From positions 224,001-288,000 of the forward strand of contig CAWDVW010000005.1 in assembly GCA_963805855.1 (NCBI GenBank): 64,000 nucleotides of DNA. Reading direction: 5' to 3'. Origin of the DNA: Candidatus Dadabacteria bacterium (lineage in GTDB: Bacteria; Desulfobacterota_D; UBA1144; Nemesobacterales; CSP1-2). Below the pieces are notes generated by a model. It worked only from the letters and a program-made list of their open reading frames with translations. It did not search any database and was not told the DNA's origin. Position 1 is the first letter of the stretch, and every line of letters starts with the position of its first letter. The translations under genes and the position numbers were made by a program. Below, one piece after another: positions 2,416 through 54,677 of the stretch.

Positions 2416-3291
2416 TTAAACTAGTTGTCCTTGAGTCTTCAAAATTTTTTTCACCTCTTTAACACCAAATGCAAGCAGAAAAAATAATGATGCGACAACA
2501 GTTATCGAGGCCCCGGTTGGAATAGAAAGTATAAATGAGAAAAAATATCCCAAGACTGCTGAGAGAATACCGATAATAACTGAGAATATAAAAATCATAA
2601 TTAGCTTTTCGGTGAGAAAGAGGGCCGTGAGGGGCGGCAGAGCAATAAGTCCAAAGACAGGTAGTGCGCCCAGGGCCCTCGTAGTAACCGCGACTATAAT
2701 ACCGACGGTCAACAGCAAAATAGTATTGAGAAATCTAACGGGATATTTATATAAAATCGCCGTTTCCTGATCGAAAGAAACGAAAATGAAATCCTTATAG
2801 AACACCAAATGAACAATAATGGTTATCAAGGCAACCGAAGGTATTACATAAACATCCGTCGGCTCGACAACTACGGCGCTTCCAAATAGAATATCTGCTA
2901 TATCATGGGCTCCTTTAGTTATACGGTCACCAAGTATCACCACAAGCCCCGACGCAATCAGGAAACCAAATGCTATAACTCCTTCCTGGCTGATCGGGAA
3001 AAAATCCCTTTTCAAAGCAAAAAACAAGGCAGCCAGTGCGGTGAAAATCAATGACATCGTAAATGGATCAATCAAGTGACCAAGTGAGCTTACAACTGCA
3101 AGTCCCTGGAGATAAAAGGCAAGCGCCACACTGAAACTTGAAACCTGAGTCAATGCTGCACTCACAAAAATAACCCTTCTGAGTACAACATAAACCCCAA
3201 GATACCCGCAAATTGCTCCTGAAACAGCGCCTACGATCATAGGGTCCCGCCAAAGAAAGTAACTGTTTACAAATTCAGTAATTGATTCCAT
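2416..3291 (-). CDS. Zn/Mn ABC transporter permease (ZnuB/MntB family)
   Basis: Hydrophobic; GYLGVYVVLRR, ILFGS and FVSFD motifs; co-oriented with ATPase and binding protein. Confidence 0.9.
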   Translation of the reverse strand: MESITEFVNSYFLWRDPMIVGAVSGAICGYLGVYVVLRRVIFVSAALTQVSSFSVALAFYLQGLAVVSSLGHLIDPFTMSLIFTALAALFFALKRDFFPISQEGVIAFGFLIASGLVVILGDRITKGAHDIADILFGSAVVVEPTDVYVIPSVALITIIVHLVFYKDFIFVSFDQETAILYKYPVRFLNTILLLTVGIIVAVTTRALGALPVFGLIALPPLTALFLTEKLIMIFIFSVIIGILSAVLGYFFSFILSIPTGASITVVASLFFLLAFGVKEVKKILKTQGQLV

Positions 3292-3460: not shown

Positions 3461-4210
3461 TCAAACTAATCTTCCTAACCTGTCGGGTACCTGGCCAAGG
3501 CTCATGTCTATTCCAAATATCTCGCTTATGATCTCATCGGTTAGAATGTCGTCTTTAATCCCTGCTTTGAAGATACCGTTATCTTTATCGATTACCATTA
3601 CATGGTCTGCAAATCTTGATACTGTGTTTAAAAAATGACTCACCATTAGAACCGTAAGTTTACTTTCCTCTCTTACCCTCTCGACGTGCTTCATGATTTC
3701 AGTTTCTCCCCTGACGTCAACAGAAGCTGTAGGTTCGTCGAGGATCAGTATATCAGGGGTACCTGCTATTGCTCGGGCAAGGAGAGCTCGCTGTTTTTCA
3801 CCTCCCGAGAGCGATCTGAATGGACGATTCTTTAAGTGAGAGATTTCAAGTTTATCGAGAGAATTCTCGACTATATCACGGTCTGACTGCCTCGGTCTTC
3901 TGCCGACTGGAATACGACCATGCCTCCCCATCATGACGATTTCATACACCGAGGTCGGGAAAATCCTGTCAAAAATTTCAGTTTGAGGAACATAGCCAAA
4001 TACCATATTATCCCGGTAGTCTATTCGACCAGACACTTGCGGGATAAGCCCCAGTATTGTCTTAATCAATGTGCTCTTGCCCCCTCCATTGGGTCCTATG
4101 ATCCCCCAATACTCCCCCTTTTGAATCGACAGGTTTATCGATTTTGAAAAGCCCTCGTTTAAATATCCGATGGACACGTCCTTAAGCTCAATCAGAGGTT
4201 TTAATTTCAT
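3461..4210 (-). CDS. Zn/Mn ABC transporter ATP-binding protein (ZnuC family)
   Basis: Walker A GPNGGGKST, GYVPQ, LSGGEKQR, Walker B LILDEPT. Confidence 0.92.
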   Translation of the reverse strand: MKLKPLIELKDVSIGYLNEGFSKSINLSIQKGEYWGIIGPNGGGKSTLIKTILGLIPQVSGRIDYRDNMVFGYVPQTEIFDRIFPTSVYEIVMMGRHGRIPVGRRPRQSDRDIVENSLDKLEISHLKNRPFRSLSGGEKQRALLARAIAGTPDILILDEPTASVDVRGETEIMKHVERVREESKLTVLMVSHFLNTVSRFADHVMVIDKDNGIFKAGIKDDILTDEIISEIFGIDMSLGQVPDRLGRLV

Positions 4211-4283: not shown

Positions 4284-5252
4284 TTATGTAGCCTTTTCAA
4301 TGTTCTTCACTTTACTTAAAGCTCCTGTGAGCTCATTTACGATTGTATCAATTAGTTGCGTATAGGTATCAATCCCCTCCCTCGCCCCGACGCTGGACGG
4401 AAGTACAAGAAACTCTGTCCCAGTTTTCTCGGCAATTATACGGGCCGTTTTTTGAGGATAGAAGGACTCGGCTATCACAAGTTTAACATTCTGATTCTTC
4501 ATATTCTCAATCAATTTAGCAACATGGGATGGTGTAGGAGGAATTCCAGGCTTTGGTTCAATCCATCCGACTTCTTCTAAGCCTGCCCAGTTTGCAAAAT
4601 AATCCCAACTCTTGTGGTAGGCCACTATCTTAGTGCCCTTAAAAGGCGCAAGTTGGGCCTCCCACACCCCGATCTTTTTGATTAGCCTATCGGCAAATTG
4701 CTTAAAATTGTCTTCATAAAATGAGGCATTTTCAGGATCGATTTGTCCCAGTCTATGCGCAATCCCTTTTGCGACCAAAATACCATTTCTTGGGTTGAGC
4801 ATATAGTGAGGATTTCCAAAGGGATGTATGTCTCCCATACTCCTGTCAATTCTCGTTGTTGGAACCTCCAGTATGTTAGTTATTAAGGTTGAAGCGTCAA
4901 GACGGCCTGGCGCCGAAAGTGCCGTAATGTTTGAATTCCTTGAACCTGTAATGAGAACGGGGAGCCAACCTATCTCCAGATCTAAGCCTTGATATATCAG
5001 TAAATCGGCTCTATTCAGGTCTCGGATAAAACTTGGTTTAGCGTCGACAAAATGCGGGTTCTGGTAACCTTTACCGATGCTTCTCACCTCTACTTTGTCT
5101 CCACCGATCTCCTTAGCAATTGCCGCAAAATCGGGAAGAGAAGTAACTACCCTAACCCTGGCAAATAAATCCTGAGTCGGAAAAAGAGTCAGTCCTAACG
5201 AAAAAGATACCACGAAAAATAAGACGATTTGGGGAAATTTATACAAGCTCAT
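4284..5252 (-). CDS. Zn/Mn ABC transporter substrate-binding protein (cluster A-I)
   Basis: Likely start MSLYKF at 5252 with GGAGG SD; signal peptide; NPHF, GNPHY, YHKSW and PGIPPTPSH motifs. Confidence 0.9.
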   Translation of the reverse strand: MSLYKFPQIVLFFVVSFSLGLTLFPTQDLFARVRVVTSLPDFAAIAKEIGGDKVEVRSIGKGYQNPHFVDAKPSFIRDLNRADLLIYQGLDLEIGWLPVLITGSRNSNITALSAPGRLDASTLITNILEVPTTRIDRSMGDIHPFGNPHYMLNPRNGILVAKGIAHRLGQIDPENASFYEDNFKQFADRLIKKIGVWEAQLAPFKGTKIVAYHKSWDYFANWAGLEEVGWIEPKPGIPPTPSHVAKLIENMKNQNVKLVIAESFYPQKTARIIAEKTGTEFLVLPSSVGAREGIDTYTQLIDTIVNELTGALSKVKNIEKAT

Positions 5253-5277: not shown

Positions 5278-6639
5278 CTAAAATGGGTGCGCCCCATGGG
5301 CACCCATTGCCCACTCAAATTGGAGAAAAAAAGCACTAACATTCCTGGCGAAGTCGGGATTTGTAAAATCGTACTCAAGCTTAAATCTCGTAAACTCTGT
5401 TGGACTGAAGGTAAGCATTGGTGATATACGGTACTCTCTGCCGGGAAGACCAAGCATTTGATCCTCGGGGCCACCCGGTGGAATTGGCACAGGAGTATTG
5501 GTATCAGTTAAGCCAAGCCTGACACCGGTATTCCATCTCTTTGCAAAACGATAAACTACCTGGGAATAAAACCCCCAATCCTTCAGGCTTTCATCAGGCG
5601 TCTGTGACCTCCTCGACATAAATTCAGACTGCAGCATGACCGCTTGATATGGATTATTGAGTAAGGGCCGATACTTGGCGAACACGTCTGCCCCCCAAAG
5701 GTAAGAGCGATTCTTTTCCCCTGTACCATCAGGCCCGGTCGCAAACGAAGCTCCGAGAGCAAGTGATAGTGAATCTGAGATCTCAAAAAAGTTAGCGACG
5801 TGAAAAACGTAGAGTAGCAACCCTAGATTGTTCATATCTTCATCCGGCGCAAAAGTCGGCGTTTCCAGGTCAAAAGGGCTATTAACCGAAGCGTTCAGCT
5901 CTAAGAACCATGGGACTGGTACTAAAATATTAGCCTCAATTCCCGTGGGATTGAGATGCTCTGCTAGGAATCTCGCGGCAACAAGAGGTAAAGTTACAAA
6001 GTCTTGATTGTGTCTGTGTATCTGATTGATTCTCCCGAACTTACTCCTCATAACCCCACCCCTGAACTGGAGACCAAGCGGAAGAGAAAAGAGACTTGTA
6101 CCATAAATTTCTTCGACCTCGAATCCTTCTCTCGTAAACGAAATAAAACTGTCAAATCTAAAATATGGATCTACTACACTTTGAAACCCTATTTCACCTT
6201 CCTGAAAATTAACGCCCGTATTTTGTGGGTCATTTTCGACAAGCATCGGAGGATTATTCGTAGAATAGTATGCTGCTGCAAACAGTCCAATTACGCTTAT
6301 ATCCGGATTAAGGGTCTGCAGAGTTCTTTGGAAAAAGCCCTCTTTGGGAAGAGAAGCCTCGGTAATCTGCTTGATCTCTTCCTCCGATTTCTTTTCTTCC
6401 TCTGCTTTCTTGGCCCGGCTCTCTAATTCCATATTTTTCTTTTCAAGCTCCTCCAATTTTTGTTGCATTTGCTGCATCTGCTGACGAAGCTCCTGTATCT
6501 GTTTTTTTATGTCCCCTTCTTCACCCACGGCCTGATTTGATGAAATCAAACTAGAAAAGAAAAAGGACAGTGCACAAGTAACAATTATTTTATTTAATAG
6601 GGATATTCCGAAATACCCTATATATAGGCGGAATACCAT
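5278..6639 (-). CDS. Outer-membrane beta-barrel/porin associated with Zn uptake (N-terminal coiled coil)
   Basis: Signal peptide, coiled coil, NPDISVIG, FGRINQIHRH, C-terminal GAHGAHPF ending in Phe; first large gene of the metal ABC operon. Confidence 0.75.
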   Translation of the reverse strand: MVFRLYIGYFGISLLNKIIVTCALSFFFSSLISSNQAVGEEGDIKKQIQELRQQMQQMQQKLEELEKKNMELESRAKKAEEEKKSEEEIKQITEASLPKEGFFQRTLQTLNPDISVIGLFAAAYYSTNNPPMLVENDPQNTGVNFQEGEIGFQSVVDPYFRFDSFISFTREGFEVEEIYGTSLFSLPLGLQFRGGVMRSKFGRINQIHRHNQDFVTLPLVAARFLAEHLNPTGIEANILVPVPWFLELNASVNSPFDLETPTFAPDEDMNNLGLLLYVFHVANFFEISDSLSLALGASFATGPDGTGEKNRSYLWGADVFAKYRPLLNNPYQAVMLQSEFMSRRSQTPDESLKDWGFYSQVVYRFAKRWNTGVRLGLTDTNTPVPIPPGGPEDQMLGLPGREYRISPMLTFSPTEFTRFKLEYDFTNPDFARNVSAFFLQFEWAMGAHGAHPF

Positions 6640-6745
6640 ATCTCACCTCCAAAACTAAAGTAAGTCAGACTGCTCTAAGACGGCTGACTCACAATGTATT
6701 TGTTGAAAAAATATTGAGGAGATATGTCAGGCAACCGGAGGTGAG
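6637..6745 (-). promoter_or_regulatory. Putative SD/anti-SD translational switch between leader ORF and porin
   Basis: Plus-strand CTCACCTCC (6642-6650, the SD on the mRNA) is the inverted repeat of GGAGGTGAG (6737-6745, in the RSPP codons); CATATCTC (6637-6644) is the inverted repeat of GAGATATG (6719-6726). Confidence 0.6.
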
Positions 6746-7050
6746 CGGGGTGAATAGTTAAATCGGAAATACGATGAAGGGATTATAAGATCGCTATTGA
6801 CATAAGTTATTAATCGACTAAATCGATTGAAAGCAATATTTATAACTTTATTTGTCTGTCTTAAATTGCCGCTCAAACGGCAGGCAGAGCAATATTCAAT
6901 ATTGTGACCAGGATAACCTGATTCAGTCTTATAAACTCCATCAGGTAAAGAGGAACCAAAATAGAAGACATGATTATGCAACCCAAGTGAGAGAACAAAT
7001 ATTACAACTAGAAACCAGATCGATATCTTCGTATAATTTTTAAATCTCAT
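6727..7050 (-). CDS. DUF2946-like leader/regulatory peptide (TM segment, HNH, CxxC, C-terminal RSPP)
   Basis: 107 aa from MRFKNY; hydrophobic N-terminus, LHNH, CSAC, terminal SPRSPPVA; directly upstream of the porin. Confidence 0.7.
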   Translation of the reverse strand: MRFKNYTKISIWFLVVIFVLSLGLHNHVFYFGSSLPDGVYKTESGYPGHNIEYCSACRLSGNLRQTNKVINIAFNRFSRLITYVNSDLIIPSSYFRFNYSPRSPPVA

Positions 7051-7339
7051 CACTTTAGCTTTATCGAATCGGAGTATATGATCGCTACTTATATCACAAA
7101 CAAAACGCTCTGTCAATCAAAATACTTATTGATCGACCTTTCACCAAATTAAGCCCCCACTACTTATTATGTCTATAAATTTTTATCCTTCTTTCCTGAA
7201 TTTCATATGCTTCGCCGATATGGCAGACCTAGGTATCTTTTATAGAATTGTCATAATAAAATCTTGTTTACGATATAATGTAAGTTACGAATCAATCGTG
7301 AAAAATTAAACTGAGACAGGTAATCATAATACGGGAGAT

Positions 7340-53848: not shown

Positions 53849-54445
53849 CTATTGAGTTTCGAACCAGATCGCCACCCATCCGCTTTCACGATAGTCGTTA
53901 TTTACCCTGAAGCCTGCTTTTGTATAAGCAGTTACGAGTGCTTCCTCCTTCACCTCATAGATTCCAGACACAAGGAGAATGCCATCCTCCGTTAACATGG
54001 ACTTGAACCAATCTACCAAAGCTAAAAGATCATCCGTAACAATATTGGCTATAATTAATTCGAATCTCCCTCGAACATCCTCTTTGGATCCATACTGTAC
54101 GCGACCTATAGAATTTAGTTTGTTCTTCTCAAAATTCACCTCCGCCTCTTTTACGGCCGCCGGATCGATATCCACAGCCAAAACACCTTCGGCTCCGAGC
54201 GATGCAGCGCAGATCCCCAGTACTCCGCTTCCACAACCAAAATCCAAGACTGTTTTTACGATCCGTTTTTTGAATATCTCTTCAAGGCCCGTTATGCAGA
54301 GCCTGGTTGTTGGATGTTCGGCACCAAAGGAGCTTCCTGGAGAGATCTCTATAACTTTCTTTTCACCATCCGGGGTTTTCAACCCAATCCTCGATTCGGT
54401 CAATCGGAATTCAACATAGGGCTTATATGATCTCATCGATTGCAT
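53849..54445 (-). CDS. PrmA-like SAM-dependent methyltransferase (short form)
   Basis: PGSSFG.EHPTT, VLDFGCGSGVL, DIDPAAV, IIANI, LVSGI; lacks most of the N-terminal domain. Confidence 0.75.
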   Translation of the reverse strand: MQSMRSYKPYVEFRLTESRIGLKTPDGEKKVIEISPGSSFGAEHPTTRLCITGLEEIFKKRIVKTVLDFGCGSGVLGICAASLGAEGVLAVDIDPAAVKEAEVNFEKNKLNSIGRVQYGSKEDVRGRFELIIANIVTDDLLALVDWFKSMLTEDGILLVSGIYEVKEEALVTAYTKAGFRVNNDYRESGWVAIWFETQ

Positions 54446-54601: not shown

Positions 54602-54677
54602 TAGCATGTTGACGGTGCCTCTTTCGTTTAATTCTCACCTCCGAATGCCTCTCTCGTGAGTCGAATGCGGGTCCTGT

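Follow-up and report, generated by a model that had tools for sequence, protein, structure and literature searches.

A short leader gene lies on the reverse strand of a 64,000-nucleotide (nt) stretch of DNA, here called the window, from a Candidatus Dadabacteria bacterium (contig CAWDVW010000005.1 of assembly GCA_963805855.1, positions 224,001 to 288,000 of the forward strand). It encodes a peptide of 107 amino acids (aa) and is followed on the same strand by genes for an outer-membrane porin-like protein and for the three components of a ZnuABC-type metal importer (Table 1), while the gene upstream of the leader is divergent. Close to its C terminus the peptide carries an Arg-Ser-Pro-Pro (RSPP) sequence, a putative ribosome arrest motif whose codons are complementary to the porin gene's Shine-Dalgarno (SD) sequence.

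Table 1. Features of the leader, the leader-porin junction and the downstream operon (positions in the window)
Feature	Position	Strand	Basis
Possible sigma-70 promoter, TTGACA, 17 nt, TATAAG	7088..7116	(-)	read by eye
Leader open reading frame (ORF), 107 aa, ATG start, end ...SPRSPPVA followed by TGA	6727..7050	(-)	ORF reading
Hydrophobic N-terminal segment of leader, residues ~9-24, export signal or N-in membrane anchor	6979..7026	(-)	sequence reading and AlphaFold2 (AF2) helix
H25-N-H27 (H-x-H)	6970..6978	(-)	both His invariant, 52/52 sequences
H49 of leader	6904..6906	(-)	nearly invariant in one homologue alignment (A1)
C54-S-A-C57, putative metal-ligand motif	6880..6891	(-)	C54 invariant
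R102-S-P-P105, codons CGC UCA CCU CCG, putative arrest motif	6736..6747	(-)	R, P, P invariant, 52/52
5' arm (anti-SD) of 11-bp helix, third base of R codon to first base of codon after P105	6735..6745	(-)	column pairing
Second complementary segment CAUAUCUC	6719..6726	(-)	opposite GAGAUAUG over porin start; judged chance
Inner intergenic hairpin (GUGAGUCAG...CUGACUUAC)	6660..6692	(-)	minimum free energy (MFE) fold
3' arm of helix, porin SD UUGGAGGUGAG	6642..6652	(-)	paired with RxPP codons
Outer-membrane porin-like protein, 453 aa	5278..6639	(-)	signal, coiled coil (~41-87), ~16 strands, C-terminal Phe
ZnuA-family substrate-binding protein, 3-His ligand pattern	4284..5243	(-)	PF01297 at 5.6e-52; alignment to PsaA
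ABC transporter ATPase, ZnuC-like	3461..4210	(-)	PF00005 at 4.6e-28
ABC-3 family permease, ZnuB-like	2416..3291	(-)	PF00950 at 2.3e-38

The translated leader reads MRFKNYTKISIWFLVVIFVLSLGLHNHVFYF...GHNIEYCSACRLSGN...IIPSSYFRFNYSPRSPPVA. A first-pass annotation, made from the letters of the window alone, had described an ORF of this length with a hydrophobic segment, HNH, CSAC and, 44 residues further on, RSPP, and the ORF reading confirms each of these elements. It had also called RSPP terminal, but a Val and an Ala codon precede the TGA, so that the motif is near-terminal. The residues that it named HNH are present as well, but they amount merely to an H-x-H motif, which is HNH in 36 of the 52 homologues aligned and HSH, HTH, HAH or another variant in the remainder. 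M1, H25, H27, C54, R102, P104 and P105 are invariant in this alignment. Position 57 is occupied by Cys in 42 sequences and by His in ten, and the existence of these CxxH variants fits a metal ligand better than a disulfide. The arrest-type motif is RSPP in 42 homologues and RAPP in ten. Exactly 44 residues separate CSAC from RSPP in the window leader; across the family the distance from CxxC/H to RxPP is 40-44 residues, with 44 in 29/52, and RxPP is followed by two residues in 38/52 leaders and by three in 8/52.

The basic N terminus and the hydrophobic stretch that follows it are kept in the homologue alignments, and a helix spanning residues 4-26 is the sole confident element of the AF2 model. 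The region between the motifs is weakly conserved and is disordered in the model.

Pairing of the RxPP codons with the porin SD

The first-pass annotation had pointed to a 9-bp complementarity between the RSPP codons and the porin SD about 95 nt downstream, and this holds: CUCACCUCC (6745..6737), which lies inside the RSPP codons, is a perfect 9-nt complement of GGAGGUGAG (6650..6642), and the two are 94 nt apart from start to start. The MFE structure of the segment 6620-6780(-) pairs both 9-mers with each other at -34.6 kcal/mol (z = -2.46), and five of 200 shuffled sequences fold as well. Counting both strands, the 64-kb window contains five copies of the 8-mer GGAGGTGA where 1.64 would be expected, and two of the five are the porin SD and the anti-SD read from the opposite strand.

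The conservation of this pairing was assessed in 30 loci in which the leader is complete and the porin frame runs on without interruption, including two that are cut by a contig end (L009 and L013). Three further loci were left out, namely L019 (contig end), L037 (no RxPP) and L029 (genome G010, porin frame interrupted), the last of which still has the codons CGU UCU CCU CCA and the SD GGAGGUGA. The intergenic region between leader and porin measures 60-215 nt, and the loci were aligned on the first Pro codon and on GGAGG. The porin SD contains GGAGGU in all 30 loci and GGAGGUGA in 26 of them. Helix columns -4 to +6 pair in 22-30 of the loci, whereas the flanking columns pair in 1-15, which is near random. 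Altogether 297 of the 330 helix cells are paired, compared with 122-177 when the register is shifted by 1-3 positions; the complementarity proposed in the first-pass annotation is thus conserved in homologues. Partition-function folding gives a probability above 0.5 for pairing between the SD core and the RxPP codons in 25/30 loci, the closing helix is present in 26/30 local MFE structures, and in an RNAalifold consensus of 14 loci with short spacers the RxPP-SD helix is the only helix. The ends of the helix alternate between types of pair: column +5 is A-U in seven loci, G-C in seven and G-U in 11, and column -4 is U-A in nine, C-G in seven and U-G in six. When columns -4, +5 and +6 were shuffled jointly, the observed pairing was reached in 130 of 20000 trials, a figure uncorrected for relatedness.

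The strongest argument for the helix is the constraint on synonymous sites in the arrest-type motif. The codon for P104 is CCU in 26/30 loci, where 8.3 would be expected from the codon usage of each locus, and this preference spans G+C contents of 38-60%. At the third position of the Ser/Ala codon, 26/30 loci have A or G against 15.1 expected, while five different codons are used for the Arg of the motif and three for P105. The nominal p-values of 1e-11 (CCU at P104) and 3e-5 (Ser/Ala third base) overstate the case because the genomes are related; CCU is found at P104 in all or most members of 15 of the 18 genera. Orthologues therefore keep codons compatible with the anti-SD, as the first-pass annotation had anticipated. 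On this comparative evidence the mRNA is predicted to form a helix that takes up the SD of the porin gene and that would be disrupted by a ribosome at the end of the leader.

A second leader family, found in genus g16 for which there are many complete genomes, shows the same arrangement (L090-L109, for example L090:228-518 (-), and L110:4459-7555 (-)). The sister leader consists of a signal, EHEHEG-x-x-CEIC, 45 residues, RGPP and then three residues, and the genes downstream of it encode a coiled-coil porin, distantly paralogous, together with a ZnuA-family protein and a permease of the ABC-3 type. In 19/19 parsed loci CCU encodes the first Pro of the motif; L090 is outside these 19 and was read by hand. 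The last two codons before the stop are mostly UCC UCC and form a second complement to the SD AAGGAGGAAA, which pairs with the codons from RGPP to the stop at P>0.5 in 15/19 loci. This suggests that an anti-SD encoded in arrest or termination codons recurs in the lineage.

Five loci of genus g20 (L033, L036, L040, L043 and L046) have a second CCCCUCCGGAAUG-like element in the long inner stem of their 150-215-nt spacers. This element could act as an alternative anti-SD and hints at a multi-state structure.

The first-pass annotation had further proposed that a second segment immediately after the leader stop covers the porin start codon, and that a stalled ribosome would mask both anti-SD segments. 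CAUAUCUC does complement GAGAUAUG, but the match is not conserved. Runs of at least 7 nt are seen in only 3/30 loci, and the 8-nt run of the window is reached by 26 of 200 window shuffles, so that this segment was rejected as a regulatory element. Joint masking is doubtful because CAUAUCUC starts at +15 from the P-site codon, which is the edge of the footprint.

Downstream genes, neighbourhood and distribution

The downstream genes are of the kind that the first-pass annotation had named, a porin and a metal ABC operon, with the porin identified by structure matches and the ZnuABC-type components by Pfam. The porin frame begins with an ATG at 6639..6637, and its 453-aa product matched no Pfam family. 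The AF2 model has a mean predicted local distance difference test (pLDDT) score of 67.9 overall and 70-88 in the barrel, and comprises a signal helix, a coiled coil and about 16 strands. Foldseek matches it to MOMP, OmpT, VhChiP, DcaP (a coiled-coil porin) and OprP/OprO, with E values of 3e-11 to 1e-8 and template modelling (TM) scores of 0.4-0.65. As the top structural matches of the model are porins, 'porin' is a fair label for this protein. In an alignment of the substrate-binding protein (SBP) with PsaA, two His fall in the NPH motifs and a third, in YHK, stands where PsaA has its Glu ligand, while a Pro takes the Asp position of the PsaA SVDD motif. We take the PsaA ligand residues to be His, His, Glu and Asp, a Mn-type set, and three His to be the zinc pattern of ZnuA; by this pattern the ZnuA-family protein of the window would have a zinc-type rather than a Mn-type ligand set.

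Of 61 related genomes, 32 contain a homologue of the leader; among 120 genomes from the phylum there are 47 that do, all belonging to one order. A profile search against 1.84 billion cluster representatives returned only 39 clusters at E<=0.001, and word-indexed protein searches with the leader returned close relatives only (seven matches) or the query itself. The gene order leader-porin-ZnuA-ZnuC-ZnuB is kept in 31/32 leader-bearing loci. The sole exception is a second, truncated leader copy without RxPP (L037).

A porin orthologue at E<1e-100 is present in 49 genomes, of which 47 carry a leader that is detected by a hidden Markov model (HMM). One of the two others, G056, proved on inspection to encode a diverged leader (L089:182-954 (-)) with SHFH, CVLC, 43 residues, RSPP and SFA, the start of which overlaps the end of a Fur-family gene; here the codons AGA UCA CCU CCA lie opposite UGGAGGUGA. 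The other, G016, has no leader. Its locus L088 (G016:C17:780700-782400) consists of a Fur-family gene, a ZIP gene, a 69-nt spacer and the porin gene, whose SD, AGGAGA, is ordinary and which starts with GTG, in place of GGAGGUGA with ATG. A metagenome scan with the CxxH subgroup found a single locus (L087), in which Fur-family and ZIP genes precede the leader and are followed by genes for a porin that is 50% identical, ZnuA, ZnuC and ZnuB. In this distant locus CGU UCA CCU CCA lies opposite UGGAGGU.

The genes upstream of the leader vary and encode an ABC ATPase (family f2), an ABC-3 permease, a ZIP zinc transporter or a short-chain dehydrogenase; ZIP and Fur-family genes adjoin the leader in several loci. 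The second leader copy of L037 (G013:C186), together with protein P0020, keeps HNH and CPAC, has lost RxPP and runs into unrelated sequence. It adjoins ABC ATPase and permease paralogues and may be decayed or rearranged. Two porin orthologues contain in-frame stops (G097:C3:38086-39471 with three TGA codons, and G010:C50:13099-14255 with one TAG and a split frame) and may be pseudogenes or assembly errors.

Likeness to known arrest leaders and proposed mechanism

The first-pass annotation had rightly named CruR and CutF as precedents (PMC9426467, PMC9973294). CruR (Bp2923 of Bordetella pertussis) is described as a DUF2946 upstream ORF (uORF) with an export signal, CXXC, 45 (+/-1-2) residues, RAPP and three further residues, in which both CXXC and RAPP are needed for regulation. 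It is separated by a long intergenic region from a gene for a TonB-dependent Cu transporter, and copper is reported to relieve the arrest and thereby to lead to Rho-dependent termination (PMC9426467). The present leader resembles CruR in its export-type segment, its CXXC, the spacing of about 45 residues and an RxPP located two to three residues from the C terminus, as well as, probably, in a long intergenic region (here 60-215 nt) before a gene for an outer-membrane uptake protein and in the expected logic, whereby arrest keeps the importer on and metal releases it. It differs from CruR in that the motif is mostly RSPP instead of RAPP, in the additional invariant HxH, in the downstream genes, which encode a porin and a ZnuABC-type importer instead of a TonB-dependent Cu transporter, in the SD-sequestering helix as opposed to Rho-dependent termination, and in its lineage, which is that of Dadabacteria-type metagenome-assembled genomes and not Proteobacteria.

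Membership of the DUF2946 family, as defined by its Pfam profile, was not borne out. The Pfam model (PF11162, gathering score 23.7 bits) matched neither the window leader nor any protein of the whole genome at E<=1, and of 25 leader-family members only P0044 gave a match, at 20.4 bits and E=9e-4, which is below the cut-off. Among the Atlas clusters that have a Pfam family, the nearest is assigned to DUF2946 at a score of 0.95, which serves as a lead only. Given the non-detection by Pfam, the leader is treated as CruR-like in how it works and, where membership is concerned, as no more than a remote relative.

CutF of Rhodobacter capsulatus is described as carrying CxxxC and PPP and as controlling the next gene through an SD-shielding stem-loop (PMC9973294; bioRxiv 10.1101/2025.02.05.636593). 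Like CutF, the leader would be an exported metal-sensing peptide whose stalled ribosome opens an SD-shielding mRNA structure of the next gene. In contrast to CutF, it has CxxC and RSPP, its anti-SD is formed by the arrest codons themselves and not by an intergenic stem-loop, and its target is an importer, while CutF directs the induction of a Cu-detoxifying oxidase in the presence of Cu. The explicit RNA switch, which the first-pass annotation had named as part of an extension beyond copper, is not new for this class of leader, since CutF already has an SD-shielding stem-loop. As judged from the sequences, the leader family combines CruR peptide geometry with RNA control of the CutF type, and its distinctive trait is an anti-SD that coincides with the putative arrest site.

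Small proteins with a C-terminal RxPP upstream of regulated genes are also known as RAPP/RGPP arrest peptides, which include ApdA, ApdP and the peptides of a survey. RSPP is reported to be an arrest-permissive variant that is under-represented in proteomes, and RAPP/RGPP small proteins are described upstream of Cu-related genes encoding TonB receptors, YcnI, PCuAC and PepSY (PMC12992588). Metal-homeostasis genes are listed there among the downstream genes, and the metal-related ones named above are Cu-related, unlike the ZnuABC genes found here. For the RAPP peptides ApdA and ApdP it is reported that no SD-sequestering hairpin was found (PMC7897499), whereas an SD-sequestering helix is predicted for the present leader. 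Arrest near the end of a uORF that prevents an SD-occluding helix from forming is shared with SecM-secA and MifM-yidC2; these differ in that they monitor export or insertion, are freed from arrest by the pull that Sec or YidC exerts and involve neither metal ligands nor a metal transporter. Metal-sensing arrest leaders are a recent discovery (CruR in 2022, CutF in 2023-25) and, in the accounts cited here, have been demonstrated for copper only; the authors of the CruR study state that neither Cu nor Zn has a known riboswitch (PMC9426467). No paper was found that links an arrest peptide or a DUF2946 leader to ZnuABC-type zinc uptake, though relatives of the family or neighbours of ZnuA type may figure in supplementary lists, and the terms 'zinc', 'ZnuA', 'ABC' and 'porin' are absent from the main text of the CutF paper (PMC9973294). 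The closest item in the literature is a DUF2946 gene listed upstream of the czr efflux genes of Caulobacter.

It is proposed with moderate confidence that the leader is a cis-acting regulator of the CruR/CutF kind that heads a zinc-type uptake operon, in which the arrest codons gate the SD and metal releases the arrest. A ribosome translating the leader would arrest at R-S-P-P, its P site occupied by the CCU of P104 and its A site by the codon of P105. The codons then occupying the E, P and A sites (UCA CCU CCG) are those that form the anti-SD, and as long as they are held in the ribosome the helix would be blocked and the porin, and probably the rest of the operon, would be translated. Once the arrest is released, two more codons would be read, termination would follow and the ribosome would leave, so that the helix closes over the SD. 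Release would probably be brought about by metal, most likely Zn(II), bound at H25, H27, H49, C54 and C57/H57, so that the importer would be turned off when metal is sufficient, as with the polarity of CruR.

If the ribosome exit tunnel holds about 30-40 residues, then with a nascent chain of 104 residues and the CxxC placed 44 residues before RSPP, the ligands up to C57 would just have emerged at the point of arrest. The 44-residue spacer suits a release driven by folding or by the binding of metal, which has been proposed for CruR. The expected sites of P104 (P site) and P105 (A site) are assigned by analogy with a toeprint of CruR, in which the arrest is reported with its two Pro codons in these sites (PMC12992588). 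The conservation of the peptide motifs and their spacing, the synteny, the helix and the synonymous-codon constraint are observed; we infer arrest, metal binding and the compartment of sensing. Zinc is the probable metal, though with moderate confidence, and four observations favour it: the binding protein has a 3-His pattern, ZIP and Fur-family genes are neighbours, the ligand set of the leader is rich in His, and CxxH variants exist. Given arrest, a polarity whereby metal releases the ribosome and turns the importer off is rather likely, because metal-triggered release is the sensible polarity for a target that is an importer. The core of this interpretation is well supported by the comparative evidence and would make the leader a variant of a known regulator, not a new kind. 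A more far-reaching version is held tentatively, namely that this is the first zinc-sensing nascent peptide, whose Cys/His site (HxH...H...CxxC/H) folds on Zn(II) just outside the tunnel, with the resulting pull releasing an RSPP arrest of which the codons are the anti-SD, and that the RSPP and RGPP families reuse this design.

Points against the proposed switch and alternative readings

Several results weigh against the proposed gating of the SD by an arrested ribosome. When a footprint from -12 to +15 was forced to be unpaired with P104 in the P site, the mean probability that the SD is unpaired rose only from 0.03 to 0.14 and exceeded 0.5 in 0/30 loci, since the SD mostly pairs with weaker partners instead. 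The SD is thus paired in the unmasked fold, as the first-pass annotation had supposed, but masking frees it only in part. The cost of opening the region from the SD to the start codon fell on average from 13.6 to 9.4 kcal/mol, with a median gain of 4.1 kcal/mol; the gain was at least 3 in 16/30 loci and about zero or negative in 7/30, the loci without a gain being mostly those with long intergenic regions and a second CCUCC element. Equilibrium folding ignores kinetics and competition by the 30S subunit, and this result therefore tempers the switch model and does not refute it. The RNAalifold consensus of the 14 loci contains no fully compensatory pair (covariation term +0.15), so that the support comes mainly from conservation among related, non-independent genomes. 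Furthermore, four of the 30 loci lack CCU at P104, and the SD side of the helix would be conserved in any case because it must match the 16S rRNA. The AF2 model of the leader is poor (pLDDT 61.3), and for this reason no metal site was derived from it by modelling. In family f2 and genus g5 (loci L024, L025, L030-L036 and L039-L046) the stop of the ABC ATPase gene overlaps or abuts the leader ATG as ATGA or TAATG, which suggests translational coupling and means that in some operons another gene precedes the leader. Fur-family regulators beside some of the loci could also explain metal control without the leader.

The overlapping start codons in family f2 suggest chains of coupling and lend some weight to the reading that coupling is constitutive, with any ribosome that translates the leader opening the helix and the leader itself being an exported small metal-binding protein in which RSPP is a slow spot. 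The helix overlaps codons 3-4 from the stop, and every passing or terminating ribosome would therefore open it. This reading is quite unlikely in view of the invariance of RxPP in 52/52 sequences at a fixed distance from CxxC/H, with a poorly conserved and apparently disordered region in between, and in view of the match to CruR, where both the motif and its spacing are regulatory. A purely fortuitous match, in which Pro-Pro codons that are often CCUCC happen to complement any strong SD and have no function, would account for five of the nine bases once Pro-Pro is encoded with CCU, and for an SD that is conserved for its own reasons. It leaves the excess of CCU over expectation across a wide range of G+C, the length of 11 bp with sharp borders, and the persistence of pairing in distant loci (L087, G056) and in the sister family to coincidence, and is very improbable.

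Attenuation as described for CruR, whose own mode is Rho-dependent (PMC9426467), would be an alternative in which the stalled ribosome mainly blocks the loading of Rho on the C-rich, G-poor 3' end of the leader, with the SD helix being secondary or additional. Rho is encoded in the genome, and the last 150 nt of the leader contain 25.7% C and 15.4% G, compared with 17.9% C and 26.2% G at the start of the porin gene. The 60-nt window with the highest C-minus-G content starts 24-88 nt before the leader stop in 28/30 loci, mostly 53-70 nt before it, and is intergenic in the other two. The C-richness stems in part from Ser, Pro, Leu and Phe codons, and Rho loading would leave both the constraint on CCU and the register-specific SD helix unexplained; as the main mode it is unlikely, while Rho-dependent attenuation as an added layer is possible. 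The polarity might also be that of CutF, in which case metal bound to the exported nascent chain would prolong the stall and the operon would be induced by metal. CutF is exported co-translationally and Cu is reported to enhance its stalling and to melt the SD-shielding stem-loop (PMC9973294; 10.1101/2025.02.05.636593), and an export-type segment is likewise present at the N terminus of the leader studied here. A porin and an importer that depends on an SBP, as found downstream here, are however normally wanted under metal shortage, and the combination of CxxC, 44 residues and RxPP is that of CruR and not the CxxxC and PPP of CutF, which makes metal induction decidedly unlikely.

If the proposed mechanism is correct, the principle of metal-sensing arrest would extend to zinc import and the family would reach beyond what the Pfam DUF2946 model detects. 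The leader would also offer a compact test system, as one synonymous change at a proline codon should uncouple arrest from the RNA switch. On the more far-reaching version, which is held tentatively, it would constitute a Zn switch that is protein-based and acts post-transcriptionally, with a single element serving as both arrest site and RNA switch. The codon pattern can be turned into a search rule, namely a strong SD that faces RxPP codons of the form ..A CCU CC., which is applicable to all RAPP/RGPP uORFs.

No known RNA family was recognised in the stretch, the only hit being isrI at E=0.84, which is at noise level. After the 9-bp inner hairpin and just before the SD, UUUAGUUUU at 6651..6659 gives the junction a terminator-like look in this genus that is also seen in L022. 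An intrinsic terminator at this position was considered and rejected, as a terminator scan made no call and the U-tract is not conserved in other loci; inner intergenic hairpins are present in most loci. No convincing Zur-box palindrome was seen by eye in the upstream regions, where no motif tool was run. The possible sigma-70 promoter upstream of the leader was not called by the promoter scan because its second hexamer ends in G, and a similar sequence, TTGACA...TATAAT, is present in L026-L028. No RNA data set is listed for the stretch, and its best DNA matches are labelled salt-marsh metagenomes, one of which may be the source. The other three occurrences of the 8-mer GGAGGTGA in the window lie at 54136..54143 and 54635..54642 (-) and at 3798..3805 (-).

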